A DNA stretch of 64,000 bases, taken from the NCBI GenBank assembly GCA_050946575.1, contig JBMNVB010000005.1:39383-103382 (forward strand). Reading direction: 5' to 3'. The first letter of the stretch is position 1. Every line of letters begins with the position of its first letter. The notes under the pieces are model-generated. The model was not told the origin of the DNA. It saw only the letters and a list, made by a program, of their open reading frames with translations, and did not search any database. This DNA is from Anaerovoracaceae bacterium. Lineage in GTDB: Bacteria; Bacillota; Clostridia; Peptostreptococcales; Anaerovoracaceae. The position numbers and the translations under genes were made by a program. Below, piece by piece: positions 491 through 63,670 of the stretch.

Positions 491-1660
491 ATGACTGATG
501 CCTATTTTTATACGTATTTATTTTTACTGATAGCCGAGATGATAATGAGTATAGTCATGCTCGGTAATCTGGACAGGAGCATCGGACGTGATTTTGAAGT
601 CAGGACCTTCAAGAATCTCATCCGAGTTTTTATGTTGTTCATCATAACGGAGTTTTTCTGGGTGGGGACGAATTCGGATGTGCTGCCTCTGTCGGAGAAT
701 ATCACTATCTTCGTATCGCTGCTGAACGTCGGTTCGATATCGACTGTGACTTATATCTGGTTCAAATATGTGCAGGCGAAGGTGCACCCGGAATTCGCGA
801 ATAATAAACTTGCGAATATTATATGGGCGCTGCCGATCGCCGTTGTTTATCTGCTCCGGATCTTCTCGATCAGGACTCACTGGCTGTTTTACTGCGTGGG
901 GAGCCATACATATCAGGGCAGATTCTATCCGCTCCTCGGGTTCCTGCTCATCGTCTATCTCGCGTACGCGACATGGATAGCCGTCATGAAAGGGCGCAGC
1001 GCTAAACTTTCTTCAGAAAGAGAAGAATACTACGCATTGATAAGATTCATAATCCCGCCCATCATAGCGCTGTTCATAGACGAGCAGGTATACTACACGC
1101 CGGTCGTCGGGCTCGGCGTGCTGGTCGGCATATTCATGGTATATGACCATACGATGAAATCGAAGATATTCAACGACGCGCTGACAGGGCTGAACAACCG
1201 CAGAAAGGCGGAAGACTTCATCGAGACATCCATCCCGAACGCGTCGACGGAGCACCCGCTCGTCATCTGCATGATGGACGTGGACAACTTCAAGAAGATA
1301 AATGATACATACGGACATAACGAAGGCGACAAGGCACTGATCATCATCAGCGAATGCCTGAAGGAAACGGCGTCTTCAAAATCGACGTTCGCCGGCAGGT
1401 ACGGCGGCGACGAGTTCCTTCTGATAGGCAGAAAAGAGTATTTCGGCGCTCCGAAAAAGTTCCGGCAGGATCTGGACGCGCTGCTGGATTCCATGTGCAA
1501 GTCGAACGGTATGCCGTACAGGATCTCGCTCAGCATGGGATGCGCGTATGTCACGGATCCGAATGAGTCCCGCGAGGAAGTCATAAGGCGCGCGGACGAC
1601 CAGCTTTACATGGACAAGCGGCGCCGGCAGAAACTTTCGTCGGAGCAGAAAATCGGATAG
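491..1660 (+). CDS. Membrane-anchored diguanylate cyclase (GGDEF domain)
   Basis: N-terminal multi-TM region, then DVDNFKKINDTYGHNEGD and GRYGGDEFLL (GGDEF motif). An alternative GTG start lies at 467. Confidence 0.85.
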   Translation: MTDAYFYTYLFLLIAEMIMSIVMLGNLDRSIGRDFEVRTFKNLIRVFMLFIITEFFWVGTNSDVLPLSENITIFVSLLNVGSISTVTYIWFKYVQAKVHPEFANNKLANIIWALPIAVVYLLRIFSIRTHWLFYCVGSHTYQGRFYPLLGFLLIVYLAYATWIAVMKGRSAKLSSEREEYYALIRFIIPPIIALFIDEQVYYTPVVGLGVLVGIFMVYDHTMKSKIFNDALTGLNNRRKAEDFIETSIPNASTEHPLVICMMDVDNFKKINDTYGHNEGDKALIIISECLKETASSKSTFAGRYGGDEFLLIGRKEYFGAPKKFRQDLDALLDSMCKSNGMPYRISLSMGCAYVTDPNESREEVIRRADDQLYMDKRRRQKLSSEQKIG

Positions 1661-1667
1661 AAAATCT

Positions 1668-1696
1668 GCAATGCCGTGAACCGGCATTGCTTTTTT
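1668..1696 (+). terminator. Rho-independent terminator after the GGDEF gene
   Basis: GCAATGCCG-tgaa-CGGCATTGC stem followed by TTTTTT. Confidence 0.8.
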
Positions 1697-1715
1697 AGTG
1701 GAGAAAGAGGATGTC

Positions 1716-2174
1716 ATGATAAGAAGAAGCAATGCCGCGGACTGCGGCGATATTTATGAGATGATCTGTGACATGGAGAAAGAGACCTTGGACAGGAACG
1801 TGTTCGACCTGATATACTTGGAACAGTTGAATAACGAAAATATGCTGTGTCTCGTCAGCGAAGACGGCGGCGGAGTCCGTGCGTTCATAAATCTGAGATT
1901 CGAGATGCAGCTGCATCACTGCGAGCGCATCTGCGAGATAATGGAGTTCGTCGTGAAAGACGGATACAGGGACCGCGGCCTCGGAGCCGCCGTGCTCGAA
2001 GCGGCCTTCCGCGCCGCCCGGGAAAACGGATGCGCACAGATAGAGGTCGCGTGCAATCAGCTCAGAGAAGACGCACACAGATTTTATATCCGCGAAGGCA
2101 TGAACAACTTCCACTATAAATTTTCCAAACGTCTTTCGGGCCGGGACAGCGGCGAAAACAGACTTGGCAGGTAA
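1716..2174 (+). CDS. GNAT family N-acetyltransferase
   Basis: GGAGAAAGAGGA RBS before the ATG. Acetyl-CoA binding-like core RDRGLGAAVLEAAFRAARENG. Confidence 0.75.
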   Translation: MIRRSNAADCGDIYEMICDMEKETLDRNVFDLIYLEQLNNENMLCLVSEDGGGVRAFINLRFEMQLHHCERICEIMEFVVKDGYRDRGLGAAVLEAAFRAARENGCAQIEVACNQLREDAHRFYIREGMNNFHYKFSKRLSGRDSGENRLGR

Positions 2175-2188
2175 ACAGAAAGGACCGG

Positions 2189-4177
2189 ATGGGGAGCAGA
2201 AAAGAAGCGATAAAAAAAGATTTCACAGTATGGAAGGGTTCCGGGCTGATCCTGATAATTATCGGCGTGTGCCTTACATTTTATTCGGAGGCGTCTCCGG
2301 CCGGCAAGGCGTTCTGCGTCGCGGCATACAGCGCAGCGGCTGTATTCTCACTGACGCCGGTCTCCCGTGACAGAGGGAAAATCATACAGCGCGTCCTGTT
2401 CGCGGTCTCCCCGTTGGCGTCATATTTCATACTGGAGATCTTTACGGGCGTCGGGACCGGAAACGCCGCGGCGAAGCTTTTCTCCGTGACCGGGGCCGTG
2501 AACATATTTATTCTCGTGCTCGTACTCTGGATGTGGTATGTGATCCTGAACAAGATCAAATCGGCCGCCGTGTGTGAGATCGCGTTCGCGTTCACGCTCG
2601 GCGGGGTGGATTACATACTCATAATGTTCCGCGATTCCCCGCTGCTCGCGCACGACATCGCATCTGCCGTGACGGCGGCCGGCGTGGCCTCGAATTATTC
2701 TCTCGTCCTGTCCGCTTCGGCCGCTTACTGCATGACGTTCGCGATAATATACCTCGCGGTGCTTGCATCAATGCACGGATACAGGAGCATCGACCGGCGG
2801 CGCCGGCTCGCGTGCTGCGGCCTTTTCCTCTGCGGGGCATTGATGCTTGCAGGCGTGATGACGGGCACGAACGCGATAGGGAAAACGGAGATATCCGGCA
2901 TTGATATAACCGGAAGTTTCAAAAAGAACGGGACGGCGCTGTCCTTTGCGATGAGCGTAAGGGACGCGAAGGTCGAAAAACCGGAAGGGTACAGCGTCGC
3001 AGCCGCGAAAGAGGCGGCGGAAGGATACAGGTCGGACAGTGCCGGGACCGGACTGACCGTGTCGGAGGAGCATCCGAACGTGATCGTGGTGATGGACGAA
3101 TCGTATGCGGACCTCAGTTATCTCGGGCAGTTCGATACGGCGCAGGACTATGCGCCGTTCTACAGGAGCCTGAGTGAAAATACGATCAAGGGCACACTGC
3201 ACACGTCGGTGTTCGGCGGGAACACGGCAAACACTGAATACGAGTTCCTTACCGGGAACAGCCTCGCATTCATGCCGCTCCATATGGTGCCGTTCAACTA
3301 TAAGGCAAAGGACGGTACGCCGTCTGTGGCCCGTACGCTCGCGGCGCAGGGATACGGCGGCGACATAGCGTTCCACCCCGGCAGGGAAAGTTCATATAAC
3401 AGGAACGATATATATCCCGCATACGGATTCAAAAAGGCGATGTTCCTGGATGATGCCGCGAGCAGCGAAATGCTGCGCGCCTATCTTTCGGACAGATCGG
3501 ATTTCGAAACAATAATGAGCGAATACGAAAAATACAGAAGCGGCGGAGCGTCTGATCCGTTTTTCATGTATAACATCACCATCCAGAATCACAGCGATTA
3601 CAATGATGCGAACGGCAGGGTGAGCGGCGCCGATTATCTCAGCGGAGATCTCTCCGGCTGCGAATCGACGGAGCAGTACCTGAAGCTAGTAAGGAAGACC
3701 GACGACGCGCTGAAGGACCTTATCACGTATTACGAAAAAACGGATGAGCCGACGGTAATAATCTTCTTCGGCGACCATCAGCCGATGGTCGATGAAAAAT
3801 TCTATGACGAGGTCCTCGGAAATACAGACGGGAACATCGAAAAGGAGGAACTGAAATACCGCGTTCCGTTCATGATCTGGGCGAACTACGATATACAGGA
3901 GGAAAGCGGCGTGCAGATCTCCGCGAATTATCTCGGGTCGTATCTCCTCGATAAGATCGGAGCGCGCATGACCGGATATGATAAATACCTTCTGGATCTT
4001 TACCGGAAAGTCCCCGTGATAACATCCGTCTGCTATATGGGAGATGACGGGAAAATCAGGGAGCGCGGCGAAAAATCGAAGTACAGCCAGTACCTGCGTG
4101 AATATCAGATCCTGCAGTATAACAATACAGTGGATGCGGAAAACAGGATCGGCGGATTTTTCAGACTGCGCGAGTAA
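2189..4177 (+). CDS. LTA synthase family protein (LtaS-like sulfatase-fold membrane enzyme)
   Basis: Five or more N-terminal TM helices, then an extracellular sulfatase-type domain (VIVVMDESYADLS, GGNTANTEYEFLTGNS, FFGDHQP). Confidence 0.8.
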   Translation: MGSRKEAIKKDFTVWKGSGLILIIIGVCLTFYSEASPAGKAFCVAAYSAAAVFSLTPVSRDRGKIIQRVLFAVSPLASYFILEIFTGVGTGNAAAKLFSVTGAVNIFILVLVLWMWYVILNKIKSAAVCEIAFAFTLGGVDYILIMFRDSPLLAHDIASAVTAAGVASNYSLVLSASAAYCMTFAIIYLAVLASMHGYRSIDRRRRLACCGLFLCGALMLAGVMTGTNAIGKTEISGIDITGSFKKNGTALSFAMSVRDAKVEKPEGYSVAAAKEAAEGYRSDSAGTGLTVSEEHPNVIVVMDESYADLSYLGQFDTAQDYAPFYRSLSENTIKGTLHTSVFGGNTANTEYEFLTGNSLAFMPLHMVPFNYKAKDGTPSVARTLAAQGYGGDIAFHPGRESSYNRNDIYPAYGFKKAMFLDDAASSEMLRAYLSDRSDFETIMSEYEKYRSGGASDPFFMYNITIQNHSDYNDANGRVSGADYLSGDLSGCESTEQYLKLVRKTDDALKDLITYYEKTDEPTVIIFFGDHQPMVDEKFYDEVLGNTDGNIEKEELKYRVPFMIWANYDIQEESGVQISANYLGSYLLDKIGARMTGYDKYLLDLYRKVPVITSVCYMGDDGKIRERGEKSKYSQYLREYQILQYNNTVDAENRIGGFFRLRE

Positions 4178-4239: not shown

Positions 4240-4445
4240 ATGAAATTCGCAGGAAAGTGGCATTGCGCCCGCCGAAGGAGTAAAACTCTCAGGTGTCCGC
4301 GGCCGGACTGAGCTTATCGTCCGGGGATGAAAACTGTGGATGGATCGTCGCTCTGGAGAAGTCCGGCATCTAAGCCGGATGCCGAAGGTGCAACGCGCGC
4401 TATTAAGCGCGGCGAATCTCTCAGGCAAAAGGACAGAGCAGAGAA
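4240..4445 (+). promoter_or_regulatory. Tandem glycine riboswitch (two aptamers)
   Basis: Aptamer 1 (~4248-4312): GGAAAG..CGCCGAAGGAGTAA..CTCTCAGGTG..GGAC. Aptamer 2 (~4351-4440): CTCTGGAGAA..TGCCGAAGGTGCAA..AATCTCTCAGGCAAAAGGACAGAG. Both match the conserved glycine-aptamer cores. Confidence 0.85.
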
Positions 4446-4737
4446 CATGTACCCGCGGGCCGCGGGATGCGGCCGCCTGAAAACAATTCTGCCTTTATGT
4501 CCAAGACTGATACGGATCGCCGCGGCGTTCCGTTTTTCATTTTGAGAAAGCGGACATCCTCCCACGCAGCGCGTGGATCAGAGGCGCTTCCCGTAAAGAT
4601 GCCGGCGACAAAATCACCCCGTCATTTATTGCATAATGACAATGCGCTCCGCGGTATTCGGGGCGCACAAAAAACACAGCCGCGGTCCATGCCGCGGCTT
4701 TCCGCATTTCAGAAAAATACCGGCCCTGCAAAAAAAT

Positions 4738-5576: not shown

Positions 5577-7118
5577 ATGAGAACTGAAAGAAACCGTGAG
5601 ACGCCCGGAGTTTCGGGCGCCCCGCGCAGCCGCAGGAAAAGAAAGAGCGGAAAGCGGAAACTTTTCGTCGTTCTTATAGTACTCGCAGTACTCATTGCTG
5701 GCGCGGGGATATACGCATACTCTTATGCCGCGTCTGCCGTATCGGACGCCGGCGGCGCGATCCTTAACGGCGTGAGCATTTCAGGCATTGATGTCGGAGG
5801 GATGACAAAAGATGAAGCGAAGAGCAAACTGGACGGACGCATATCCGATTCAGAAGACGCCGTCATTTCGCTGAAGGCTGGAGAGCGCGTCAGGAAAGTC
5901 ACATACTCTTCCTTTGATCCGGAATATGACTCGTCGCAGGCCGTGAGCGCAGCATATGACGTCGGCCGGAAGGGAAATCCGTTCAGAAGATATATCGAGG
6001 TTAAGCGCGCCGAGAAAAACGGGGAGGACATCAGTCTTTCGGTCTCTGTAAAAAAATCGAAGATCAGGAGCGTTCTCAAAAAGAACGAATCGAAGCTCGT
6101 CAGCACGCCGGTAAACGCGTACATCGTCGAGAACGACGGTAAGGGCGAGATCGTAAAAGGCAGGAAGGGCCATAAGATAATCTACGCTTCGTCGATCGAA
6201 GCGGTGAACAAGGCCGTTACGGCCGACTGGACAGGGAAAGACAGGACGGTCACGCTCAGTACGAAGAAGTCCGATCCCGATATCACGGCGTCGGATCTTA
6301 AGGGCCTTACGGATATAATGGGGACGTATCAGACGAGTTACTCGGGCAGCACGTACGGAAGATGCAAAAACATTGAAAACGGAGCGTCCATACTGAACGG
6401 CACGATCGTTGAGCCGGGCGAGGAGTTCTCCATGTATAAGACGGTCACGCCGTTCTCGCCGGAGAACGGATACTATCTCGCGGGAACGATCGTTGGCGAA
6501 AAGCACATCGACGATTACGGCGGCGGGATATGCCAGGTGTCGACAACGCTGTATAACGCCGTCATACGTTCCGAGCTCAAAGTTACGGAGCGTCACAATC
6601 ATTCACTGATGATCGGATATGTGCCGGTGTCCGCCGACGCGTCTATCGCAAGCGAAAATTTCGATTTCAAATTCAAAAATAATAAGGACGATCCGATATA
6701 CATTTACGCTCAGGCGGGAGGCGGCTCGATAAAGATCACGATATTCGGGAATGACAAGCGTCCTTCGAACAGGACAGTTGAATTCGAGTCCGTCGTCGTG
6801 AACTATATACCTTACGGCACGAAAGTGATAAAGAAGGACAATACGCTTGAGGCGGGGAAGAAGAAGATCGACACGCCGGGACAGACCGGCTGCAATGCCC
6901 AGCTGTGGAAAATCGTCCTCGTAAACGGGAAGGTGAAATCGCGCACGAAGTTCAATACCAGTCACTACAACAAGGTCGACCAGAAGGTGATACTCGGGAC
7001 AAAGAAGAAGACCACGACCGATACGAAGACCGACAAGACTGACACGACGACAGACAGCAGCAGTGACAGCAGTGATGACACGACCGATGACAGCACGGAT
7101 GATTCGTCGGATTCCTGA
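5577..7118 (+). CDS. VanW family protein with C-terminal G5 domain and acidic Thr/Ser/Asp tail
   Basis: N-terminal TM anchor, VanW core (GGGICQVSTTLYNAV), a G5-like segment (TPGQTGCNAQLWKIVLVNGKV) and a low-complexity TTDTKTDKTDTTTDSSSDSSDD tail. Confidence 0.8.
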   Translation: MRTERNRETPGVSGAPRSRRKRKSGKRKLFVVLIVLAVLIAGAGIYAYSYAASAVSDAGGAILNGVSISGIDVGGMTKDEAKSKLDGRISDSEDAVISLKAGERVRKVTYSSFDPEYDSSQAVSAAYDVGRKGNPFRRYIEVKRAEKNGEDISLSVSVKKSKIRSVLKKNESKLVSTPVNAYIVENDGKGEIVKGRKGHKIIYASSIEAVNKAVTADWTGKDRTVTLSTKKSDPDITASDLKGLTDIMGTYQTSYSGSTYGRCKNIENGASILNGTIVEPGEEFSMYKTVTPFSPENGYYLAGTIVGEKHIDDYGGGICQVSTTLYNAVIRSELKVTERHNHSLMIGYVPVSADASIASENFDFKFKNNKDDPIYIYAQAGGGSIKITIFGNDKRPSNRTVEFESVVVNYIPYGTKVIKKDNTLEAGKKKIDTPGQTGCNAQLWKIVLVNGKVKSRTKFNTSHYNKVDQKVILGTKKKTTTDTKTDKTDTTTDSSSDSSDDTTDDSTDDSSDS

Positions 7119-7186: not shown

Positions 7187-9079
7187 TTATTTCAGTTTGA
7201 ATGCCACCGGATTTGAGATCGGAGCGTATATCGTCTTGCTTCCGGATTTTCTTATCGCCCGCACCCTGTAGTAGTACGTCACGTTACGCTTCATTTTCAT
7301 TCGCAGGGATGTAGCCGGCCGGTTCACGGTGACTTTTTTATACACATTCCCGGTGGATGATTTTGACTTGCATACGTAAATCTGATACTGTGTAGCGTTC
7401 GGGACGCTTGCCCAGTACACTTTCACATAATAAGTCGAGTATTTTTTCACGGACTTTACCTTGCCCTTGTTCATGGTATACATCCATGAGGAATATACCG
7501 GAGCGGAGTTGCCGTTCGCGTCTCTTGCAATTACCCTGAACTGATATTTCGTCCCGAGCGAGAGGTTCTTCGCCGTGCATGTTGTGGTCCCGCTCTCCAC
7601 ATTCGAATCGACAGAATGGAACGTTCCGCCGTACTTACGGTACTGCACGGAGTATGAAGTCGCGTCCGACGTGCCCGTCCAGGATATTTTGATCGTCCTG
7701 TATCCGGTCAGAGCGATGCTCACGTCGCTTACCGGTTCGACATAGGCTGATTTCACTGCCTTGTAAGCGTTGATGAGGCCGCTGCCGAAATAAATATCCC
7801 ATCCCGACGTTCCGAGATCTGTCGCTGTCGACTCCACGATGTCCATGACCTGGTAATTCTTGAGGTCCGGATTCGCGGACCGGACGAGGGCCGCGACTGC
7901 CGTAGCACACGGCGTGGCCATGGACGTTCCGCTCATGGATATATAACTGCTTGTCGAACCGCCGGTATAGTAAGTGGAAAGCACGTCTTCTCCCGGAGCG
8001 GCGACATCTATATATTTGTTGTATTTTGAGAAACTGGAATGTTTATTATTAATATTCGTGGATCCGACGGCTAATACATAACTCAGATATGCAGGACTGT
8101 CTACAATATATGCATCTTCATAATAGACTATATTTCCGTTGGCGGCGCAGAAAACGATATCATAATTCGAATAAGCCTGTTTTATTGCACTGGCAAGCAG
8201 GCCGTCATCTTCAGAAGCATCTCCTCCGAAGCTCATATTTATCACTTTCGCTCCGCTTTGCGCGGCGTAGTTCACCGCATTGATGATATCCGCGTCATAC
8301 ATATTCTCTCCGTCTTCGCTGACGCCGCAGACGAACAGGTCGATGACATCGTTATTCGTCCCGGCAGCGATCCCGGCGCCGCCCAGCTGGTTATTATATG
8401 TCATATTAATGATGCCGCAGACGTGTGTGCCGTGATCCGAACCAGCGGAAAGTTCCCCTTTAAATTCAGACGAGGTCCCGTTCACGAATGTCCTTGAAAG
8501 AGCGGTGTCTATAGTGAGATCCTCGTGATCCGTCTGGCATCCCGTGTCTATGACACAGACCTTCACGCCCTGCTCATAACCGTTCGTATCCATGTAGGAC
8601 CAGGCGCTTTCGGCGTTTACCTTGCCGAGCTGCCAGCATTTTTTTGCTTCCTGAGTGCAGTAGGGATCCTTAGTCGTATCATCCACTGTATATGTATAGT
8701 TAGGCTGCACGTAGACCGCTCCGTCGGCGTTCTGCATGTCCTTCAGCGCTTCTTTTACGTTATCGGTGCTGACCGTGGCCAGCTTCGATCCGTCGAGCTG
8801 CGTCGTTACCGTTTCCGCAGAATAACCCTCTTCTTTTGTTTCCTGTTTTACCTCGGATTTCGATGTCGAGTCATCGAACAGGACCAGCACCTCGTCATCC
8901 GAGTACTCCTTTCCCTTTGTCAGCTCGCTGACCGACGGCTGCTCGGAAATGACCGAAGTCTGACTTTCCGATGATGCGGCTGTTTCGGCGTGCGCATAAG
9001 GAAGCGCTGCCGGCGTGAATGCCACCAGCATTACCGCCGATGTCACGACAGCGAGTATCTTGCTCTTCAATTTGTTCAT
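7187..9079 (-). CDS. Secreted S8 (subtilisin-like) serine peptidase with two C-terminal FN3-like domains
   Basis: Signal peptide MNKLKSKILAVVTSAVMLVAF. Catalytic triad motifs VIDTG, HGTHVCG, SGTSMATP. C-terminal repeats resemble FN3 (ISWTGTSDATSYSVQYRK..; VYWASVPNATQYQIYV..). Confidence 0.9.
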   Translation of the reverse strand: MNKLKSKILAVVTSAVMLVAFTPAALPYAHAETAASSESQTSVISEQPSVSELTKGKEYSDDEVLVLFDDSTSKSEVKQETKEEGYSAETVTTQLDGSKLATVSTDNVKEALKDMQNADGAVYVQPNYTYTVDDTTKDPYCTQEAKKCWQLGKVNAESAWSYMDTNGYEQGVKVCVIDTGCQTDHEDLTIDTALSRTFVNGTSSEFKGELSAGSDHGTHVCGIINMTYNNQLGGAGIAAGTNNDVIDLFVCGVSEDGENMYDADIINAVNYAAQSGAKVINMSFGGDASEDDGLLASAIKQAYSNYDIVFCAANGNIVYYEDAYIVDSPAYLSYVLAVGSTNINNKHSSFSKYNKYIDVAAPGEDVLSTYYTGGSTSSYISMSGTSMATPCATAVAALVRSANPDLKNYQVMDIVESTATDLGTSGWDIYFGSGLINAYKAVKSAYVEPVSDVSIALTGYRTIKISWTGTSDATSYSVQYRKYGGTFHSVDSNVESGTTTCTAKNLSLGTKYQFRVIARDANGNSAPVYSSWMYTMNKGKVKSVKKYSTYYVKVYWASVPNATQYQIYVCKSKSSTGNVYKKVTVNRPATSLRMKMKRNVTYYYRVRAIRKSGSKTIYAPISNPVAFKLK

Positions 9080-9163
9080 ATTGGAAACTCCCCCTTGTAT
9101 CTGCAATTTTATAATACCGGTCCGCAAAGGTCAATATAAGGTAGGAAGTTTGTTGGTCGTGTG

Positions 9164-10372
9164 TCACCGCTCGCGCGGGAGGCTGATCAGGAAGAATATC
9201 AATGCGCCGAGTATTGCGGAGATGTACGCCGGATGCGGGAGCCCCACTGCTTCGAATACGTTCGACACGGCGCCTATGACGGACGGCGTCACGAACTGGG
9301 CGAGATACAGCGCGGCAGATATAAGCGGAATCACAGTCGCTGCCGCGGCGCGCCCCGCCTTCGAAGACGCCGTGGAGATGATGTATGGGATGCCGAGCCC
9401 GTTCGCGAAGCCGATAAGGAATGAACCGACAATGGTCCCGATCCAGCCGCCCATGAACGCCAGCAGTATGTAGCCGAACAGGAACATGAGCGGGGCGACG
9501 ACGCGTGTGGCGCTGCCTATGTGAGCCTTGATGCGGACGAACGACAGGCCGCCGAAAAATGCGACAAGGTCCATCGCAGCCATTATGACTGAAATGAGAG
9601 CCTGCGGGATGACGCCGTCGGCCGTGGTCTCAATGGCGAAGTTCGACGGGTAGACGAAGAAAGTGAGCATAAGGAAAAACATCGCGGCGATATAGCGGGC
9701 GTATTTTTTCGCCGCCGCGCCCGTGCCTTTCGAGCGCCCTTCGTTTTCGCCGTCTTTTGAGCCGGCCTCAGTCCCGATCATGTCGCTCGGCAGAAATGCC
9801 GCACACAGTACCACGCTGATGAGCCCCATGAGATATACGAGGAAGCTGAGCCTCCAGCTCAGTGTCGCGAGCGCGCCTGCGAGCAGTGTCGCGATCACTC
9901 CTCCGAGCTGGTTCATTGCCGATGACCAGCCCATCATCTCTTCCTGGCGGCCGCGCGAAAAGTAGAATGTGATCAGTCCCGTGGAAAGCGGCATGACAAT
10001 GCCGACGCCGATCCCGACCACTGCCCTCGCAGCGAGCACGGTATATATATTGCTGAACAGGCCGGCGGCGCATCCGCCGACGGTGTACAGCGCGAGTCCG
10101 ATCATCACGAGCGGCTTTGACTTCAGATGCCTGCACATGATCGGGAACAGCAGATTCGTAATGAAGATGAACAGAGCCGGTACGCTGATGATCATCTGTA
10201 CGAGGAGCTTGCTTTCATCCGCGAAATATTTTTCTATGACTCCGAGCGCCGGAGCGACCGCGGCTCCCGCCATTACTGTCAGAAGAGACAGCGACAGGAT
10301 CGATACGGTGAGAGACCTCGACGGTCCCCGCGCTTCGAGCGAACTGTTTTCTTCTTTAGTGTTTCCCTGCAT
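9164..10372 (-). CDS. MFS transporter
   Basis: About 12 predicted TM helices and the typical MFS loop (MCRHLKSKPLVMIG). Confidence 0.8.
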   Translation of the reverse strand: MQGNTKEENSSLEARGPSRSLTVSILSLSLLTVMAGAAVAPALGVIEKYFADESKLLVQMIISVPALFIFITNLLFPIMCRHLKSKPLVMIGLALYTVGGCAAGLFSNIYTVLAARAVVGIGVGIVMPLSTGLITFYFSRGRQEEMMGWSSAMNQLGGVIATLLAGALATLSWRLSFLVYLMGLISVVLCAAFLPSDMIGTEAGSKDGENEGRSKGTGAAAKKYARYIAAMFFLMLTFFVYPSNFAIETTADGVIPQALISVIMAAMDLVAFFGGLSFVRIKAHIGSATRVVAPLMFLFGYILLAFMGGWIGTIVGSFLIGFANGLGIPYIISTASSKAGRAAAATVIPLISAALYLAQFVTPSVIGAVSNVFEAVGLPHPAYISAILGALIFFLISLPRER

Positions 10373-10548
10373 TGATGTAAAATCTTTTCCTTCCTGATTT
10401 GATGTAAACTTTAAAAAAACGCAAGCCCGTTCGGACTTACGCTTTTGCTGCTCAACAATGTAAATATATCAGAAATCACGCTCAAAAATCAAATGTTTTT
10501 TGGCAGGCGATTTTATGGCATAATGTTAATCGGAAGGGAGGTATTTGC

Positions 10549-11163: not shown

Positions 11164-11440
11164 GACGCGGCGGCGGTCTTGTACGCATGCCGGCCGGCTG
11201 AGCGGCTGCGGCCGCGATCCGTGTCGGCGGAAGTCCGGTCAGCGGGCGGCAGCCGGGATACGATGAGCGGCGGCCGGGTTGCGATGCAGGACGCGCATCA
11301 ATGCGGAAGTCCTGTCCCGGGATGCTGCGAATGAGAAAGAGATCCGGGGCGGGCTGCGGATATGATGCGGCCCCGGGATGCGCTGAACGGGATCCGCGGC
11401 AGAAGTTTCGCGGATGCACCGGCCCTGACCAGCGGGGAAA

Positions 11441-11468
11441 CACCGAGCATATATGCCGGTGCTTTTTT
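11441..11468 (+). terminator. Intrinsic terminator-like hairpin
   Basis: CACCGAGCATATATGCCGGTG hairpin followed by CTTTTTT. Confidence 0.6.
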
Positions 11469-11475
11469 AATTGGA

Positions 11476-11505
11476 CAAAATGGATGGGGATCCCCATCCA
11501 TTTTG
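11476..11505. repeat. 30-nt perfect palindrome with GGATCC core, followed by a T-run
   Basis: CAAAATGGATGGGGATCCCCATCCATTTTG reads the same on both strands. Followed by GTCATTTTTTCTTTTT. Confidence 0.9.
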
Positions 11506-11597
11506 GTCATTTTTTCTTTTTGCAGCGGTCGGAGAACTGACGATCTGACCGGAGGCCGGATACTCGGGCCCGGGGCGGGTTCCTGTCCGGGGCCGCG

Positions 11598-11809
11598 GAA
11601 ACAGGAATCCGCATTTTTGGGTGGGGTATTTTGAAATAGAGAAATTTCTCCACCCAATTTCCAACGTTTATCGGGCATTGATCCGGCGAAAAACGCGATT
11701 TCCCGATAATCCGTCCGGATCGATGCCTGCAGCCCAGTAAAAAAGGTGGGGAGATTTGTATATACGAAATTACCCCACCATTTTTGCTCATTCTCCAGAA
11801 AATGGAAGG
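11598..11809 (+). repeat. MITE-like triple-hairpin repeat element, copy F1 (left end diverged)
   Basis: Shares GGTGGGGTATTTTGAAATAGAGAAATTTCYCCACC .. GGGCATTGATCCGG .. GGTGGGGAnATTT..ATTACCCCACC ATTTTTGCTCATTCTCCAGAAAATGGAAGG with the four other copies. Confidence 0.85.
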
Positions 11810-11901
11810 CTGCGAGGCCCCCAGCACCGTCCCGACCCCGGCCGAATCAATGCAAAATCCCGCGTCGCAGCCTTGTTCCGGCTCCGAAAATCCGGATCGG
11901 C

Positions 11902-12204: not shown

Positions 12205-12233
12205 TCGCGAGGTCCGCGGCGCCGTCCTGATCC

Positions 12234-12666: not shown

Positions 12667-12677
12667 ACTGTCACGAA

Positions 12678-23411: not shown

Positions 23412-23414
23412 GAA

Positions 23415-54141: not shown

Positions 54142-54285
54142 GTGAGACTGGGATTTGTACTGACTCCGGCCGATAAAGCTGTTCTGGCGGTACTGCTGGC
54201 AGTTTTCCTCGTCGTCCTGCGTATTGTGATCGGATTCTTCCGCACGAAGCCGCGGAGGAAAGGCGACGAAAGGAGGTCATCATGA
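54142..54285 (+). CDS. Possible 47-aa single-TM protein (GTG start)
   Basis: AAAGGGGTGA RBS-like sequence, hydrophobic core AVLAVLLAVFLVVLRIVIGFF, basic tail. Its stop overlaps the next start (ATGATGA). No homology support. Confidence 0.3.
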   Translation: MRLGFVLTPADKAVLAVLLAVFLVVLRIVIGFFRTKPRRKGDERRSS

Positions 54286-54449
54286 TGAACATTGCGGATC
54301 TGATCATTCTGCTCGTGGTCGCGGCGCTGGTCATCCTGGCGGTCGTCCGCATGGCGCGCCGCAGGAAATCGTCCGGCACATTCTGCGAGCACTGCTGCGG
54401 AGGATGCGCGATGAGCGGTGAATGCCATAAATCAATGCAGAATAAGTGA
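54282..54449 (+). CDS. FeoB-associated Cys-rich small membrane protein (55 aa)
   Basis: AGGAGG RBS. MMNIADLIILLVVAALVILAVV TM helix followed by CEHCCGGCAMSGEC, the typical pattern of the small protein found after feoB in Firmicutes. Confidence 0.7.
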   Translation: MMNIADLIILLVVAALVILAVVRMARRRKSSGTFCEHCCGGCAMSGECHKSMQNK

Positions 54450-54456: not shown

Positions 54457-54484
54457 AAGAGGAGCCCGGTGCTCCTCTTTTTTA
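54457..54484 (+). terminator. Intrinsic terminator of the feo operon
   Basis: AAGAGGAGC-ccggt-GCTCCTCTT plus TTTT. Confidence 0.85.
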
Positions 54485-54557: not shown

Positions 54558-56024
54558 TTGACGAGAAAAAGGAATTATATCGGCGGCGAGTGGACGGAGC
54601 CGCTGTCCGGCGAATATCAGGAAGTTATTGACCCGGCGACGGAGGAGCCTTTCGCGGAAGCGCCGCGAAGCAGTGCGGAGGACGCGGAAGCAGCCGTTGC
54701 GGCCGCGCGGAGGTCGTTTTATGAGACCCGCGAATGGAGAGACCGTTCGGCGGAAGATCGTGCGGAGATGCTCCGGAAGATCAGGGATCTTATCCATCGG
54801 GACGCGGATGAGATCGCGGAGATCGAAACGCGCAACCAGGGCAAGCCGCTGCGTGAGGCGAAGGACGATGTCAGGGCGTCCGCGGACTGCTTCCGGTATT
54901 ATGCTGATCTGATAGAAGAAGAATCGCGCCGCGGCGCGGAGAAAATCCCGCAGGAGGGGGAGACGACCGCCTTTGTGGCTAAGGAGCCTGTCGGCGTGTG
55001 CGCCCTTATAACCCCGTGGAATTATCCGCTGCTGATGGCGGCGCAGAAAATCGCGCCGGCGCTGGCCGCGGGGAACAGCATTGTCGTGAAACCTGCATCA
55101 TATACGCCGCTCTCAACGATCAGGCTCTTTGAGCTCTTGGAAGAAGCGGGACTGCCGGCGGGAACGGCGAATCTCGTGACAGGTCCCGGAGGGACCGTCG
55201 GGGGCGCTCTTTCGCGCAGCCGCGATGTGGATATGATAACGTTCACCGGCAGCACCGAAGTCGGGCGCGGCATCATGGAGGCCGCGGCAGTGAATATAAA
55301 GAAAGTGGCCCTGGAGCTCGGCGGCAAGTCGCCCGTCATCATTTTCGATGACGCGGAGCTCAGACCGGCGGCGGAATGGGCCATGCAGGGCATATTCATG
55401 AATCAGGGCGAGATATGCTCGGCGGGCTCGAGGATACTCGTGAGCGAAAGCGTGCACGACGAATTCCTCGCATTGATGGTCGAAATGACAGAGAAGATGA
55501 CGGCCGGGGATCCCATGGAGGATCCCGACATCGGGCCGCTCGTCTCGAGATCGCATATGGAGAAGGTCCTCGCGTATATCGAAAGCGGCCTGCGGGAAGG
55601 CGCGAGGTGCGTGTGCGGAGGCCGCAGGATAGACCGGAAGGGATACTTTGTGGAGCCGACGATATTCGACGGCTGCCGTCCGGATATGAAGATCGTGCGC
55701 GAGGAGATATTCGGACCGGTCGCGGCAGTGCAGACATTCCGCGATGAAGACGAGGCCGTCGCGATGGCGAACGATACGGATTACGGGCTCGGAGGAGCCG
55801 TATTCACGAAGGACATGGACCGCGCGGCGCGTGTGATACGCGAAGTGAGGGCCGGCATGATGTGGGCGAACTGCTATAATGTCTCCGGGGCCGACATGCT
55901 CTGGGGCGGATACGGGATGTCGGGCATCGGCCGGGAAAACGGGCCGGAAGGGCTTGACGAATACCGCGAACTGAAGCAGGTGGTCATCAGCCGGGACTAT
56001 TCGATGCCGGGCTGGTATGTTTAG
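54558..56024 (+). CDS. NAD(P)-dependent aldehyde dehydrogenase (betaine-aldehyde DH-like family)
   Basis: TTG start after GGGAGG RBS. ELGGKSP, catalytic Cys context GEICSAGSR, FTGST motif. Confidence 0.85.
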   Translation: MTRKRNYIGGEWTEPLSGEYQEVIDPATEEPFAEAPRSSAEDAEAAVAAARRSFYETREWRDRSAEDRAEMLRKIRDLIHRDADEIAEIETRNQGKPLREAKDDVRASADCFRYYADLIEEESRRGAEKIPQEGETTAFVAKEPVGVCALITPWNYPLLMAAQKIAPALAAGNSIVVKPASYTPLSTIRLFELLEEAGLPAGTANLVTGPGGTVGGALSRSRDVDMITFTGSTEVGRGIMEAAAVNIKKVALELGGKSPVIIFDDAELRPAAEWAMQGIFMNQGEICSAGSRILVSESVHDEFLALMVEMTEKMTAGDPMEDPDIGPLVSRSHMEKVLAYIESGLREGARCVCGGRRIDRKGYFVEPTIFDGCRPDMKIVREEIFGPVAAVQTFRDEDEAVAMANDTDYGLGGAVFTKDMDRAARVIREVRAGMMWANCYNVSGADMLWGGYGMSGIGRENGPEGLDEYRELKQVVISRDYSMPGWYV

Positions 56025-56033: not shown

Positions 56034-57002
56034 ATGGCATTCAATGAAGCTGAACAGAAAATACTGGACATAATAAGTACGGGACGCGGCGGGCTGCAGC
56101 ATATAGAGCGGCAGTTCGAAAACGGGGCGGATGCGAACTCGCTTGAGTCAGAGCCGGAAAAAGTGGAATCGGTCGGCGGCCAGCCGTATTACAGCACACT
56201 TGCGGGAGAAGCGCTGTACGAGAACAACGAAAGCGGATATTTCCGCCATTCGGATCTCCTGCGAATATTTCTCGACCGCGGATGGGACGCGAAAAAATAC
56301 GGAGCTTCCGTCATGAGCGACCTCGCGTATCAGGTGATGAACCGAAGGCGCTCGGATTTCTACTCGCTGTTTAAGACGATACTTGACGCGGCGGGCCCGG
56401 GCATGGAGCTCGCTCAGGCGTACTCCGGCATTAGTGCGGAGCGTGAATATTACGAAATGGGCACTCCCGTCGGGAACGACGGAGGAGAGAACGACGAGCT
56501 CGACAATTATCTGTTCGGTCTGGAACAGATGCTGAAAAAATATGAGGCGGGGGAAGACTATAACTCTGTTTTCCAGTATGATCTCGCTTACGGCCAGAAG
56601 GTGAAGAGCGTCCGCATCTCGGGAGAGCCGGTCACGGTCGACAGCGCCGAGGAATTCAGCGTTGCCGCGGGAGGCCGCGACGCGGGATTCTTCGCGGAGA
56701 TCGAACTTGAAGACGATACGCTCGTGATAGACAACGCGTATTTCGCGTATATCGATAACTCATCAATGCGCGGGGCCGAAGGAGAGTTCGCCGGCAGCGC
56801 GTCCGGATTCCTGAAAGACATGTCGTTCGAGGTGCTGAGATTCACGGTCAGCCCGTTCGGCAGGACGCCGGGCGGCATGAACACCGCGAGATTCAGGACC
56901 ATCGAGCTCGTATTCGACGAACTGAAATGCCTTACGTTCTACAACAATGAAGCGGAGCGGGAAGCGGGCGTAAGAAAAAGGACGCTTCCGGAGCGCCCGT
57001 GA
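56034..57002 (+). CDS. Hypothetical cytoplasmic protein (322 aa)
   Basis: Strong AGGAGG RBS and coding-like composition. No family recognised. Confidence 0.6.
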   Translation: MAFNEAEQKILDIISTGRGGLQHIERQFENGADANSLESEPEKVESVGGQPYYSTLAGEALYENNESGYFRHSDLLRIFLDRGWDAKKYGASVMSDLAYQVMNRRRSDFYSLFKTILDAAGPGMELAQAYSGISAEREYYEMGTPVGNDGGENDELDNYLFGLEQMLKKYEAGEDYNSVFQYDLAYGQKVKSVRISGEPVTVDSAEEFSVAAGGRDAGFFAEIELEDDTLVIDNAYFAYIDNSSMRGAEGEFAGSASGFLKDMSFEVLRFTVSPFGRTPGGMNTARFRTIELVFDELKCLTFYNNEAEREAGVRKRTLPERP

Positions 57003-57602: not shown

Positions 57603-58343
57603 TCATTTGAATGATACCACATCAATGCCGTATGAGCCGGCGATGCTTTCATATCTTTCCATGGTCTCGTCTGAAGGTCTCGCGAACGATCTGTCCGGGA
57701 GATCCATGCCGAGCTGTTCGTATTTTACGTCTCCGAAACTGTGATAGGGAAGAAGCTCCAGAGACGCGCCGGGCGCATTGTCCCTTATTATCTCAAACGA
57801 GCGGCGCATCGTGTCCTCGTCCGCGTTCACGCCCTCTATCGTCGGAATGCGCACCACAAGCTCGTTATCGAGCATTGATGCCTTCCCGATATTTTCTATG
57901 ATGAGACTGTTCCCGACGCCCGTGAACTGCCTGTGCTTTTCCGGATCGGGGTGCTTGAGATCCATGAAAATGAGGTCCATTTTTTCCAGGACCGGCCGCA
58001 GCCCTTCGAAATCGAAGAAGCCGCACGTCTCTATCGCGAGACTGTAGCCCCTGTCGTACAGCGCGTCCGTCAGCTCAGCGAGAAATTCCGGCTGCGAGGT
58101 CGGTTCGCCGCCGGAAAATGTCACGCCGCCTCCCGAGAATCTGTAGAAGACATACTGCCTGTCTATCTCCTTCACGATCTCGCCGGTCTCAGCGTATCTC
58201 GTCATCGGGTTTTTCCGCGTCTGCCCCTCGGGATTCGCGCACCACGCGCACCTGAGAGGGCAGCCCGCCAGGAAAATATTCGTTCTTATGCCTTCGCCGT
58301 CATTGACGGAGAAGTTCTGTAGCTGCATTATGTAGCCGCCCAT
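57603..58343 (-). CDS. Glycyl-radical enzyme activating protein (radical SAM)
   Basis: GCPLRCAWCANPE (CxxxCxxC) cluster motif. Alternative start at 58328. Confidence 0.9.
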   Translation of the reverse strand: MGGYIMQLQNFSVNDGEGIRTNIFLAGCPLRCAWCANPEGQTRKNPMTRYAETGEIVKEIDRQYVFYRFSGGGVTFSGGEPTSQPEFLAELTDALYDRGYSLAIETCGFFDFEGLRPVLEKMDLIFMDLKHPDPEKHRQFTGVGNSLIIENIGKASMLDNELVVRIPTIEGVNADEDTMRRSFEIIRDNAPGASLELLPYHSFGDVKYEQLGMDLPDRSFARPSDETMERYESIAGSYGIDVVSFK

Positions 58344-61556: not shown

Positions 61557-61604
61557 CGGGATACACAACAGTGCGTCATCGTGATATAATCAGGATGTGA
61601 ATAT

Positions 61605-61800
61605 CATATGGCGCCGAGTTCTCCCGCATCGCGGGAGCTGAGAGGGAAGCGGGTCGGAATCCCGCGCGGTCCCGCCACTGTATTCGGAAGCGAGCCCAGA
61701 TAAAGGCCACTGGCGCGAGCCGGGAAGGCCGGGCGGAAGCAATGCCGTAAGCCAGGAGACCTGCTCGATGCCTGCCATGCGGGTGACGGAGGATCGCCCT
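61605..61800 (+). promoter_or_regulatory. Cobalamin (B12) riboswitch
   Basis: AGGGAAGCGGGTCGGAATCCCGCGCGGTCCCGCCACTGT core and B12-box-like GCCAGGAGACCTGC. Confidence 0.85.
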
Positions 61801-61830
61801 GCGGCGAATACACGCGACAGAAAAAACGGA

Positions 61831-61856
61831 ACTGCCCGAAAGGGCAGTTTTTATTT
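61831..61856 (+). terminator. Riboswitch expression-platform terminator
   Basis: ACTGCCC-gaaa-GGGCAGT plus TTTTATTTT, 27 nt before the downstream start codon region. Confidence 0.8.
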
Positions 61857-61882
61857 TCAGTCATTATCAGGAGGAGTGGAAC

Positions 61883-63670
61883 ATGGATACGGGGAAACGC
61901 ATACGCACAGCGGTACTTGCCGCGATCGTCGCGGTCTCGATGCTTGTGCCGCAGGTATCTTTCGCGGCCGCTGCGGACGACGGCGATGAACTTCCGGATC
62001 AGGCCGGATACACGCAGTCTCTGTGGAAATGGACATTCAGCGGGACGTCGGGAGGAACGTGGCAGAACGCCGTGACTCCGCCGGCTCTCATAAACGGCAG
62101 CATTTACGTTGCGGCCGGGGACAGGGTATATAAACTGGACGCGGAGACAGGAGAACAGGAAGCGAAGTCTCCTGATTTAGGAACGGCGCCGGCGTTCGGA
62201 TACGCGACGCAGCCGGTCACGTCCGACAGCGACGGAAATATCTATACGACGACGCAGCAGACCGAGAACGGCGTCACGACAACACATGTCGTGAAACTGA
62301 CGTCGGATCTTTCTTCGATATCCTGGACGAGCAGTGAAGGCATCACGGGGCAGAACATCTCGCCGGTCACATACATAAACGGCAGGATATACACCGGCAC
62401 ATTCACGAACACGAGCGGCGGAACGTATCAATGCATTGATGCGGAAAGCGGAGATACTGTGTGGACTGTGAAGAACGACGGCGGGTTCTACTGGTGCGGA
62501 GCCGCGGAGGTGAACGACAGTCAGGTCGTGTTCGGAAGTGAGGACGGCACGGTATATTCTGTTTCCGAGACAGCGGACAGCGCGGACGACATAGAGACGC
62601 TCACGCTTGAGGGCAGCATTGTCCGCAGCACGCCGGCTGTTTCGGGCAGCAATGTTTACATAACAACTAAATCGGAGACGGCGACCGCGAACATATACAG
62701 ACTTTCCGTCGGCGATGACGGATCTCTTACACAGGATGCGGCGGCGTCCTTCGGGGATTCCGTGAACACGCCGGTGATCTGCGACGGATATGTTTTCGCC
62801 GGGAATTCCGACGGAGAGGTCGCGGTATTCGACAGCGACCTGAACAAAAAGGCTTCCGCGAGCGCACCGGCATCCGTGCAGGGAGAGATGCTGGTGAGCG
62901 GCGGCAGCGGGAGCGGCTATTCGGCATACGTCACATATAATGCCAAGCCGGGAGGGATCGGTCTGGTTAAATTCAGCGCGGATCTTTCGGACGCGGAGTA
63001 CAGTTCGCTGTATAATCCGCTGGAATCGCAGTACTGCATATCGCCGGTCATAAGCGGGAACGGAGTCCTGTATTACAAGAACGATTCGAACACGATATTC
63101 GCCGTAAAGACAGGAGATCCGGACCGGTCACTGCTGAAGAATCTGAAGGCCGCGTCGCTCTCCTACAAATCGATCAGGATTTACTGGACGAAGCGCGATA
63201 ATGTGTCAAGATACGATATTTACAGATCGACATCGAAAACAGGCAAATATACAAAAGTGAAATCGCTGTCGGGAACGTCCGGGTTATTCACCGACACGAA
63301 TGTCACGTGCGGCCGCGCATATTATTACAAAGTGCGCGCGCAGCTTATCAGCGGGAAATACACCTCGATGACGGGCCCCGTTTCCGCGGTGCCGGTAGTG
63401 GCCGCGCCGAAGCTGTACGCGTACGCGGGGACAGCGAGCGTCACTCTTAAATGGTCGAAAGCGTACGGGGCTTCCGGATACAGAGTGTTCCGGTCGACGA
63501 GCAGGAGCGGCAAATACTCCTGCGTATGCACGACGAAATCGAACACGTGGAAGAATTCGAAGCTTTCCCGCAGGAAGATCTACTATTACAAGGTAAGACC
63601 GTACAGAATGGTCGGGAAAAAGCGCATATACGGCAAGTGGTCGAACGTTGCATATAAAAAGACAAAATAA
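61883..63670 (+). CDS. Secreted PQQ-like beta-propeller repeat protein with two C-terminal FN3-like domains
   Basis: Signal peptide (AVLAAIVAVSMLVPQVSFAAA). Repeated beta-propeller blade motifs (GDRVYKLDAETGE, GTVYSVSE, GEVAVFDSD, NTIFAVK). C-terminal FN3-like pair resembling the tail of the S8 protease. Confidence 0.8.
   Translation: MDTGKRIRTAVLAAIVAVSMLVPQVSFAAAADDGDELPDQAGYTQSLWKWTFSGTSGGTWQNAVTPPALINGSIYVAAGDRVYKLDAETGEQEAKSPDLGTAPAFGYATQPVTSDSDGNIYTTTQQTENGVTTTHVVKLTSDLSSISWTSSEGITGQNISPVTYINGRIYTGTFTNTSGGTYQCIDAESGDTVWTVKNDGGFYWCGAAEVNDSQVVFGSEDGTVYSVSETADSADDIETLTLEGSIVRSTPAVSGSNVYITTKSETATANIYRLSVGDDGSLTQDAAASFGDSVNTPVICDGYVFAGNSDGEVAVFDSDLNKKASASAPASVQGEMLVSGGSGSGYSAYVTYNAKPGGIGLVKFSADLSDAEYSSLYNPLESQYCISPVISGNGVLYYKNDSNTIFAVKTGDPDRSLLKNLKAASLSYKSIRIYWTKRDNVSRYDIYRSTSKTGKYTKVKSLSGTSGLFTDTNVTCGRAYYYKVRAQLISGKYTSMTGPVSAVPVVAAPKLYAYAGTASVTLKWSKAYGASGYRVFRSTSRSGKYSCVCTTKSNTWKNSKLSRRKIYYYKVRPYRMVGKKRIYGKWSNVAYKKTK

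Follow-up and report, generated by a model that had tools for sequence, protein, structure and literature searches.

To our knowledge, only two proteobacterial families show DNA uptake with a sequence bias, and the cyanobacterial word HIP1 has been without explanation for 30 years. In Neisseria the sequence-specific DNA receptor is a ComP-type minor pilin, and inverted pairs that form terminators are characteristic of this genus and weaker in the Pasteurellaceae. The uptake signal sequences (USS) of the Pasteurellaceae, with the core AAGTGCGGT, and the DNA uptake sequences (DUS) of the Neisseriaceae, with the core GCCGTCTGAA, number 1,471 and 1,892 copies per genome, respectively (PMC2817400). 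HIP1 (GCGATCGC) is perfectly palindromic and linked to two methyltransferases (PMC4390886), and its excess ranges from 15- to 300-fold (PMC5861425). Here we describe an octamer, GCATTGAT (ATCAATGC on the opposite strand), that is unrelated in sequence to the DUS and USS cores and is strongly over-represented in a 64-kb stretch of DNA (hereafter the window) from an uncultured, gut-type anaerobe of the family Anaerovoracaceae. The window lies at approximately positions 62,953-126,952 of a 207,736-bp JGI metagenome contig; in all, 81.5 kb of the source genome and about 45 kb from two sister lineages were read, all from metagenome contigs. A preliminary description of the window, made from its letters by eye, had reported the octamer and likened it to DUS, USS and HIP1. 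The data presented here point to a force that acts on the DNA word itself, and a lineage-specific self-DNA tag is tentatively put forward to account for it.

Abundance, form and placement of the octamer

The octamer was found in 49 exact copies in the window, 28 on the plus strand and 21 on the minus strand, with every coordinate and strand as counted by eye, and it is the commonest 8-mer of the window, above GC-rich low-complexity words. Markov models of orders 0-3 predict 1.4-2.9 copies, and dinucleotide-preserving shuffles gave 2.9 ± 1.7 (maximum 8); the earlier judgement that the word is hyper-abundant relative to chance stands, with the GC content assumed for it (58-60%) corrected to a measured 56.1%. 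When perfect sites were masked, the third-order Markov expectation was 1.5 copies, which corresponds to an approximately 32-fold enrichment; higher Markov orders "explain" more copies because the sub-words are common through the motif itself. Density is about 1 per 1.3-1.5 kb (49 in 64 kb; 55 in 81.5 kb of the same genome), and the enrichment extends beyond the window: its flanks on the contig, where about 0.4 copies each are expected, hold 2 in 7.8 kb (L108) and 4 in 9.7 kb (L111). The density in these flanks (2.6 per 10 kb in L108 1-7813 and 4.1 per 10 kb in L111 12119-21788) is 2-3 times below the 7.7 per 10 kb reached inside the window; polysaccharide-synthesis genes and a lower GC content (53%) are found in the upstream flank. 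The same sites are present in independent JGI, Logan and ENA assemblies, and because the sequence recurs in Logan, ENA and NCBI metagenome-assembled genome (MAG) assemblies, the octamer is no assembly artefact.

To place the copies relative to genes, a gene map was built by codon-usage log-odds, and it matches the gene calls supplied with the fetched contigs. The genes of the window are ordinary housekeeping genes (fab genes, addB, mnmA, lysS, greA, ABC transporters, panB, PFOR, feoAB and a glycyl-radical enzyme). Thirty-three copies are coding (67%), 14 lie between genes and 2 overlap start codons. The coding copies, 18 sense and 15 antisense relative to the gene strand, fill all five stop-free combinations of frame and strand (A-L-[IM] 10, x-I-D 8, I-N-A 6, x-Q-C 2 and x-S-M-x 7); no copy occupies the sixth, in which a TGA would arise, so that the earlier claim of copies in every frame is true of the five stop-free frames. 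When codons were shuffled synonymously within each gene, only 2.7 ± 1.5 coding copies remained (maximum 8) compared to the 33 observed, and 33 of the 68 peptide positions that could spell GCATTGAT synonymously do so (49%). The word does this with rare codons: TTG makes up 3% of Leu codons, as its rarity by eye had suggested, GCA 10% of Ala codons, CAA 1% of Gln codons and ATT 10% of Ile codons. GCA-TTG-ATG encodes Ala-Leu-Met at eight sites, the same eight that the preliminary description had listed. Furthermore, the peptides that the word encodes are 1.7 times over-represented (69 vs 40.3 in composition-preserving shuffles), which indicates that many copies arose through amino-acid replacements. 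Copies are 2-3 times denser in non-coding DNA, which (7.85 kb) contains 16 of them, or 2.0 per kb compared to 0.6 per kb in genes, and still contains 7 copies in 4.9 kb when two repeat regions are left out. A protein-level or codon-usage cause is ruled out by the synonymous shuffle and by the five differing readings of the word. These data support the earlier proposal that selection, or a generating process, works on the DNA and not on the protein.

The shape of the motif was assessed from its 24 one-mismatch neighbours, which occur in 0-12 copies each and, with perfect sites masked, in 71 copies in total vs 40 expected. Variants at position 7 (GCATTGCT, 12 vs 1.1 expected; GCATTGTT, 6 vs 1.4), position 8 (GCATTGAC, 7 vs 1.4) and position 3 (GCGTTGAT, 6 vs 1.5) are in excess, and one-off variants at positions 1, 2, 4, 5 and 6 are not; GCATTG is therefore the hard core, and positions 3, 7 and 8 are soft. 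Base S (G or C) is found at -1 in 37 of the 49 copies and G at +9 in 32, which makes S-GCATTGAT-G the most apt spelling of the motif. Mild enrichment is also seen for a related word, GGCATTGC/GCATTGCT (14 and 12 copies; 23 sites), which may be a tolerated position-7 variant of the motif. Thirteen copies extend to GCAT-TG-ATGC, as had been reported, in the form GCATTGATGC; the quasi-palindrome seen in this extension is weak, because the mirror 8-mer ATTGATGC occurs only 15 times vs 49 for GCATTGAT, and the asymmetry of the word is genuine. No known methylation palindrome is present in it, and GATC is found solely in copies borne by the repeats described below.

Spacing between copies is Poisson-like, with a coefficient of variation of 0.93 that rules out regular spacing and with an unremarkable largest gap and number of close pairs (4 observed vs 2.1 expected, p=0.16). 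No excess of close inverted pairs was significant outside the repeats; among the pairs pointed out earlier, 16658/16684, 62427/62433 and the repeat stem are real, and the partners at 21933 and 40395 are one-mismatch copies. The two orientations are balanced (28:21, p=0.39), and GC skew is positive in every 8-kb bin, with 84% of the coding sequence on the plus strand; taken with the 18:15 split by gene strand, this indicates that the word has no replication or transcription polarity. The preliminary description had also placed copies just after stop codons, in terminators and in intergenic hairpins. Copies at 36913, 44370 and 50407 do lie just past stop codons and four copies lie 8-60 bp from a terminator, but the placement in terminators and most of the hairpin claim were not borne out, as the only hairpins built from the motif are the apical stem of the repeats and the 14-bp perfect palindrome ATCAATGCATTGAT, which consists of two overlapping motif copies. 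This palindrome occurs twice in this genome, at window 62427-62440 inside a PQQ-repeat gene and at about 15951-15964 of L111, between convergent genes and after an asnS/aspS-like gene. No motif copy lies in any Rfam match in the window (one tRNA and four riboswitch aptamers); the riboswitches, at Rfam gathering scores, are TPP 106-207(-), tandem glycine 4240-4446(+) and cobalamin 61599-61782(+).

Seven or eight of the 49 copies are borne by a repeat of about 240 bp resembling a miniature inverted-repeat transposable element (MITE), of which there are five copies at 11615-12488 and 32753-33287. The hairpin of this repeat has the apical stem GGCATTGATCCGG/CCGGATCAATGCC (long hairpin fold, z=-5.95), and the family shows nested GGTGGGG/CCCCACC hairpins. 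The flanks of 41 of the 49 motif copies are unrelated beyond base S at -1 and G at +9, in agreement with the earlier view that the repeat family does not explain the word. The MITE was seen solely in the lineage of the window among the loci compared, and the motif is common to its sister lineages too. GC-rich tandem or dispersed short repeats (47-48 bp x5, 42 bp x2-3, 44 bp x3 and 58 bp x2) at 12677-12934, 11901-11984, 32621-32774 and 33310-33458 fill the two long intergenic gaps that adjoin the MITEs and lie upstream of fabK and an ABC transporter operon.

Range among relatives and history of the sites

Loci anchored on LysS and drawn from a species-representative genome collection assign the window to the Anaerovoracaceae (Peptostreptococcales, Clostridia). 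The window lineage (W) was then compared with other lineages. Lineage T (L114 and L115, from SRR11702762; 94.0% and 98.1% nucleotide identity) has kept 11 of the 11 window sites in range. Lineage S (the mutually identical L003, L103-L105 and L107; GTDB representative JAZAUJ01; about 80% identity) has 8 copies in 15.1 kb of synteny, compared to 9 in the window. The next lineage out (L004 and L083-L089; GC 51%; about 70-79% identity) has 2 copies in 14 kb and 0 in 10.4 kb, and 78 more distant Clostridia loci (L005-L082) are at the background level. An unbiased Markov-3 screen ranked ATCAATGC first in every W and S locus, and among the loci compared it revealed no comparably enriched 8-mer outside lineages W, S and T, so that "dialects" of comparable strength in other Clostridia are rejected. 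Other frequent words, which may reflect repeat arrays or further abundant words, were seen in L082, 21 kb of an unrelated contig of bacterium isolate H07686 (TTGCAAAA, 20 copies; CAAAATCG, 18 copies), and in L077 (AATCTGTG, 10 copies vs 0.3 expected).

Of the sites in the block syntenic between W and S, the two lineages have 4 in common as orthologues, W alone has 5 and S alone has 4. The outgroup is without the word at all 5 positions that it covers, which indicates that shared and lineage-specific sites are both gains. Where the orthologue lacks the motif, 1-5 of the 8 bases differ, spread over the whole word and with transversions included (e.g., ATAAAAGC, GAAAACGC and GCGGTCGG); the lysS site is the sole case of a single C-to-T change, from GCATCGAT (1 of 8 alignable lineage-specific sites). 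Between W and T, motif cores show 0 differences in 88 positions and flanks 12 in 264 (one-sided p=0.03), and the chance that all 11 8-mers would be intact in T is 0.04, as estimated from the identical fraction of random 8-mers; in S, 4 of the 9 sites of W are unchanged, compared to 21.6% of random 8-mers. The comparison of orthologues called for earlier thus returned sites common to sister lineages, with turnover, and cores kept more than flanks. The force on the word has been at work from the ancestor that W, S and T share, and each lineage has stayed under it.

Species S also has a low-GC (49% vs 56.5%), non-syntenic stretch of 6.7 kb with 0 copies (P=0.028 at the local density; a single region). 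Positions 15078-18000 of L103 form an island with a GC content of 45-48% that encodes MreB-like_C, HTH_26 and DUF6036 proteins, has no motif copy, is not in the W sequence compared and was probably acquired recently. LysS of species S (L103 13563-15491) has 642 aa and a C-terminal tRNA_bind domain, and LysS of the window (30935-32455) has 506 aa and is followed by a MITE region. In the region 19872-23534 of the window, no addA comes after addB; its place is taken by a minus-strand tRNA (23462-23534) and by convergent genes, and likewise in S. An AddB-anchored metagenome scan yielded only relatives at 32-48% identity. Viral contigs scanned for the 14-bp double site were at chance level among the matches listed, with at least 86 extra copies in 1.01 Mb.

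Table 1. Copies of the octamer, MITE-like repeats and one terminator in the window. CDS, coding sequence; hyphenated capitals, peptide at the site; W, S and T, lineages as in the text; sequences in brackets stand at the orthologous position.
Position	Strand	Location	Reading or remark
1034-1041	+	CDS 467-1660(+)	sense frame 0, A-L-I
1668-1690		after GGDEF gene	bidirectional terminator; stem is an inverted pair of the related word GGCATTGC
2767-2774	-	CDS 2189-4177(+)	antisense, A-S-M-H
2837-2844	+	CDS 2189-4177(+)	A-L-M (GCA TTG ATG)
2898-2905	+	CDS 2189-4177(+)	frame 1, G-I-D
5785-5792	+	CDS 5577-7118(+)	G-I-D
8277-8284	+	CDS 7187-9127(-)	antisense, I-N-A
9198-9205	-	CDS 9164-10372(-)	sense, A-L-I
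10369-10376	+	start of CDS 9164-10372(-)	CAT is the ATG start codon; word spans it and 5' untranslated bases
11297-11304	-	intergenic	repeat-rich gap 11164-13038
11615-11846	+	MITE-like hairpin repeat copy 1	carries motif copies without being the overall source of them
11675-11682	+	MITE copy 1	as GGCATTGATCCGG
11846-11853	-	end of MITE copy 1	intergenic
12010-12241	+	MITE-like repeat copy 2	
12070-12077	+	MITE copy 2	
12257-12488	+	MITE-like repeat copy 3	long hairpin (z=-5.95); motif pair is the apical stem
12317-12324	+	MITE copy 3	apical stem, left arm
12361-12368	-	MITE copy 3	apical stem, right arm
14210-14217	-	fabD-like CDS 13989-14999(+)	antisense, A-S-M-R
14616-14623	+	fabD-like CDS 13989-14999(+)	A-L-M
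16180-16187	+	fabF, CDS 15775-17025(+)	A-L-M
16658-16665	+	fabF	G-I-D; inverted pair with 16684
16684-16691	-	fabF	antisense, I-N-A; inverted pair with 16658
18434-18441	+	CDS 18305-19840(+)	A-L-M; orthologous copy in S
19160-19167	-	CDS 18305-19840(+)	antisense, I-N-A; W-only (S: ATAAAAGC)
20626-20633	-	addB	antisense, H-Q-C (rare CAA); W-only (S: AGCAATGC)
21953-21960	-	addB	antisense; common to S; one-off partner GGCATTGAC at 21933
22329-22336	+	addB	A-L-M; common to S
24508-24515	-	CDS 24412-25452(-)	sense, S-I-D; W-only (S: GAAAACGC; outgroup: TTTCACGC)
24914-24921	+	CDS 24412-25452(-)	antisense, I-N-A; W-only (S: GCGGTCGG; outgroup: GCATTCAC)
28564-28571	-	CDS 27397-29217(+)	antisense, I-N-A; common to S (outgroup: ATAAATGC)
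31899-31906	+	lysS	C-I-D with rare ATT; W-only (S and outgroup: ...ATCGAT)
32753-32998	-	MITE-like repeat copy 4	opposite orientation
32862-32869	+	MITE copy 4	stem arm
32906-32913	-	MITE copy 4	stem arm
33042-33287	-	MITE-like repeat copy 5	
33195-33202	-	MITE copy 5	partner arm is one-off GGCTTTGAT
34828-34835	-	CDS 34520-35737(+)	antisense, A-S-M-L
36913-36920	-	intergenic	29 bp past stop of 35724-36884, then T-run
39646-39653	+	start of CDS 39233-39649(-)	CAT is the ATG start codon; word spans it and 5' untranslated bases
40375-40382	+	divergent intergenic region	one-off inverted partner at 40395; conserved in T
44370-44377	+	3 bp past stop of 43159-44367	conserved in T
44791-44798	-	panB 44401-45231(+)	antisense, I-N-A; conserved in T
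45305-45312	+	intergenic, 32 bp after terminator	core conserved in T, both flanks differ
45428-45435	+	hpaB-like CDS	N-terminal M-A-L-M; conserved in T
47938-47945	+	PFOR 46881-50393(+)	C-I-D
50407-50414	+	14 bp past PFOR stop	8 bp before terminator stem 50422-50443
53929-53936	+	feoB	A-L-M; conserved in T
54431-54438	-	small CDS 54282-54449(+)	antisense; 19 bp before terminator 54457-54479; conserved in T
55470-55477	+	aldehyde dehydrogenase CDS	A-L-M; conserved in T
56762-56769	-	CDS 56034-57002(+)	antisense, S-S-M-R; conserved in T
57621-57628	-	CDS 57603-58343(-)	sense, G-I-D; conserved in T
57872-57879	+	CDS 57603-58343(-)	antisense, A-S-M-L; conserved in T
62427-62434	-	CDS 61883-63670(+)	left half of 14-bp palindrome ATCAATGCATTGAT
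62433-62440	+	CDS 61883-63670(+)	right half of 14-bp palindrome ATCAATGCATTGAT

Explanations for the excess

Taken together, the observed pattern is that of a directional force that bears on the double-stranded word as a whole, whichever way it is oriented. Among the explanations considered, a self tag coupled to uptake or recombination ranks first, a HIP1-like word second and a repair bias third, and about a quarter of the weight is kept for an explanation not yet conceived. Our tentative preference is that GCATTGAT(G) may be a lineage-specific self-DNA tag that works like DUS and USS; by analogy we infer an uptake role, with discrimination at DNA uptake or at recombination of incoming DNA, and a competent organism. 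A sequence-specific DNA-binding component would act on double-stranded DNA regardless of orientation; the most plausible candidate in a Gram-positive cell would be a part of the ComG-type competence pilus or DNA receptor, and the component would favour word-carrying fragments during natural transformation. The favoured fragments would recombine into the chromosome more often, and substitutions that create or improve a copy would be preferentially transmitted, as a molecular drive possibly reinforced by selection for conspecific recombination. Such transmission would cause the word to accumulate wherever the sequence tolerates it, i.e., in non-coding DNA, at synonymous positions even at very rare codons and at replaceable amino acids. 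The fuller claim, somewhat more doubtful than the tag itself, is that this could be the first uptake-signal-type self-recognition sequence in a Gram-positive bacterium, with a recently evolved sequence-specific ComG-type receptor and frequent natural transformation; it would imply that the receptor originated after the split from the lineage at about 70-79% identity. The alternative to this fuller claim would be that the self tag, though asymmetric, is read inside the cell by some system not described so far.

It should be noted that several points weigh against a self-DNA tag of the uptake type. We know of no uptake-sequence system in any Gram-positive bacterium, no com or pilin gene was found in the 81.5 kb of genome read, neither this sequence nor the 45 kb or so from the sister lineages contains a competence gene, a DNA methyltransferase gene or a candidate recogniser gene, and none of the 49 exact copies in the window lies in a predicted intrinsic terminator stem. 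The variant halo is small (71 one-off copies vs 40 expected), the conservation statistics are modest (p about 0.03-0.1, from small numbers), and every supporting sequence feature would equally arise if the word were under strong selection for an intracellular function. DNA binding by ComEA and by the ComG pilus has also been described without sequence specificity (PMC12236230).

The resemblance to DUS, USS and HIP1 drawn in the preliminary description is borne out by sharing between sister species with turnover, core conservation and inflated peptides, and a single low-GC stretch without copies may point the same way. Its interpretation thus holds for the DNA-level force, the lack of polarity, the exclusion of repeats as the cause and the DUS/HIP1 likeness, and fails for the hairpin and terminator aspect and for the quasi-palindrome. 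It had further known of no such word described from Clostridia-like Firmicutes, and our search of a library that covers only part of the literature likewise turned up nothing comparable in Firmicutes; a text search for the letters of GCATTGAT returned primer sequences only.

Distinctly less probable than an uptake tag is a word of the HIP1 type, read by an intracellular protein (an orphan DNA methyltransferase, a nucleoid protein or a repair protein) for a chromosome-level function, such as nucleoid organisation or the stimulation of repair or recombination, with no uptake bias. HIP1 has a periodicity of 10-90 kb, and the spacing of GCATTGAT is Poisson-like at the scale visible here. The asymmetry of the word, its lack of a known methylation palindrome and the lack of a DNA methyltransferase gene in the 81.5 kb read also argue against this account, whereas it would fit an octamer with an approximately 32-fold excess, within the range of HIP1, that is spread by substitution through all usable frames, is kept between relatives and has no link to the direction of transcription. 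HIP1 has moreover been reported to raise natural transformation in a methylation-dependent manner (bioRxiv 10.1101/2024.09.10.611283), so the uptake and HIP1 readings may converge, and the two analogies may be facets of one self-tag principle that favours conspecific recombination.

An improbable source of the word is a sequence-specific mutation or repair bias, in which very-short-patch-type repair, or deamination at a methylated site, makes GCATTGAT without any function, e.g., by CpG to TpG change in GCATCGATGC. GCATTGATGC is one transition away from the perfect palindrome GCATCGATGC, lysS in S and in the outgroup reads ...ATCGAT where the window has GCATTGAT, and deamination on either strand would give both orientations equally; however, the single C-to-T step fits only the lysS site, and the other alignable lineage-specific sites differ across the word. 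Neither GCATCGAT (6 vs 4.2 expected) nor GCACTGAT (2 vs 2.1) is depleted or enriched, the core is conserved relative to the flanks, and the encoded peptides are inflated through amino-acid replacements. The multi-position gains, the neighbour words at expectation and the conserved core contradict a single-step repair or deamination bias, and CpG deamination of GCATCGATGC is rejected as the general origin of the sites.

Footprints of a mobile element, either the MITE-like family or an IS200/IS605-type insertion sequence with a target ending in TTGAT, are a very remote prospect. The five MITE copies bear the word as an inverted pair in the apical stem, and the word ends in TTGAT, which we take to be the target, or target-adjacent motif (TAM), of ISDra2-type elements; however, dispersal of this kind is excluded for 41 of the 49 copies by their unrelated flanks, by the in-frame position of 33 copies inside conserved housekeeping genes, by orthologous alignments that show substitutions and not insertions, and by the restriction of the MITE to W. 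Least probable of all is a polar chromosome-maintenance signal, be it an AddAB Chi site, FtsK-orienting polar sequences (KOPS) or SpoIIIE recognition sequences (SRS), for although the word is highly over-represented on the core chromosome and addB lies in the window, known Chi and KOPS motifs are G-rich, unlike GCATTGAT, its density is several times that of known Chi sites, and its lack of strand skew excludes Chi and KOPS roles, as the preliminary description had argued from the strand split.

If the self-DNA tag is real, it would be a third, independent case, in another phylum, with an asymmetric word and of recent origin; gains are still legible in the alignments, and two sister lineages carry the word while the next lineage out does not. 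This would offer a natural experiment on the origin of such words, in which the gene content of carriers and non-carriers could point directly to the recogniser, be that a pilin, ComEA, a methyltransferase or some other factor. The word bends the codon usage and the protein sequences of its carrier. In practice, metagenome binning could use it as a lineage marker, and it could help to make these uncultured anaerobes transformable.

Comparison with known systems

Chi, KOPS and SRS are, like GCATTGAT, short (5-8-mers), over-represented on the core chromosome and read as DNA and not via genes; they differ in being strongly co-oriented with replication, whereas GCATTGAT is balanced and several times denser. 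HIP1 is closer, being an octamer in tens- to hundreds-fold excess that is spread by substitution in all frames, conserved between genomes beyond expectation, without a role at the RNA or peptide level and with lineage-specific variants. Unlike HIP1, which contains the sites of two orphan methyltransferases (GATC and CGATCG), GCATTGAT is asymmetric and has no known methylation site.

The uptake sequences show both differences and the larger number of likenesses. About half of the sequences termed DUES lie in terminators (bioRxiv 10.1101/2025.10.24.684340), unlike GCATTGAT, which has no copy in a terminator stem; unlike DUS and USS, the word has a small halo of mismatched copies and its host is a Gram-positive obligate anaerobe (Bacillota, Anaerovoracaceae). 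Like DUS and USS, which are 9-12-mers, GCATTGAT is a short, sharp word present about once per 1-1.5 kb in both orientations about equally. Its share in open reading frames (67%) is similar to the 65% reported for the uptake sequences of H. influenzae (PMC2817400), and, as with uptake sequences, which "approximately doubled" their tripeptides (PMC2817400), codon use is bent and the encoded peptides are up 1.7-fold. The hard and soft positions of the word (excess at 3, 7 and 8 only) are similar to the position-dependent uptake specificity measured in Haemophilus (PMC3458573). For DUS, Treangen et al. described new copies opposite poorly matching orthologous sequence and conserved cores in permissive places (PMC2397512), and GCATTGAT likewise shows site gain and loss, multi-base changes relative to orthologues and cores that are kept. 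DUS and USS are absent from recently acquired genes (PMC2397512, PMC2817400), to which the one low-GC, non-syntenic stretch of S without copies may be compared, as a single region. Finally, just as uptake sequences are common to sister taxa (PMC3630211), GCATTGAT is common to close relatives and at background in more distant ones.

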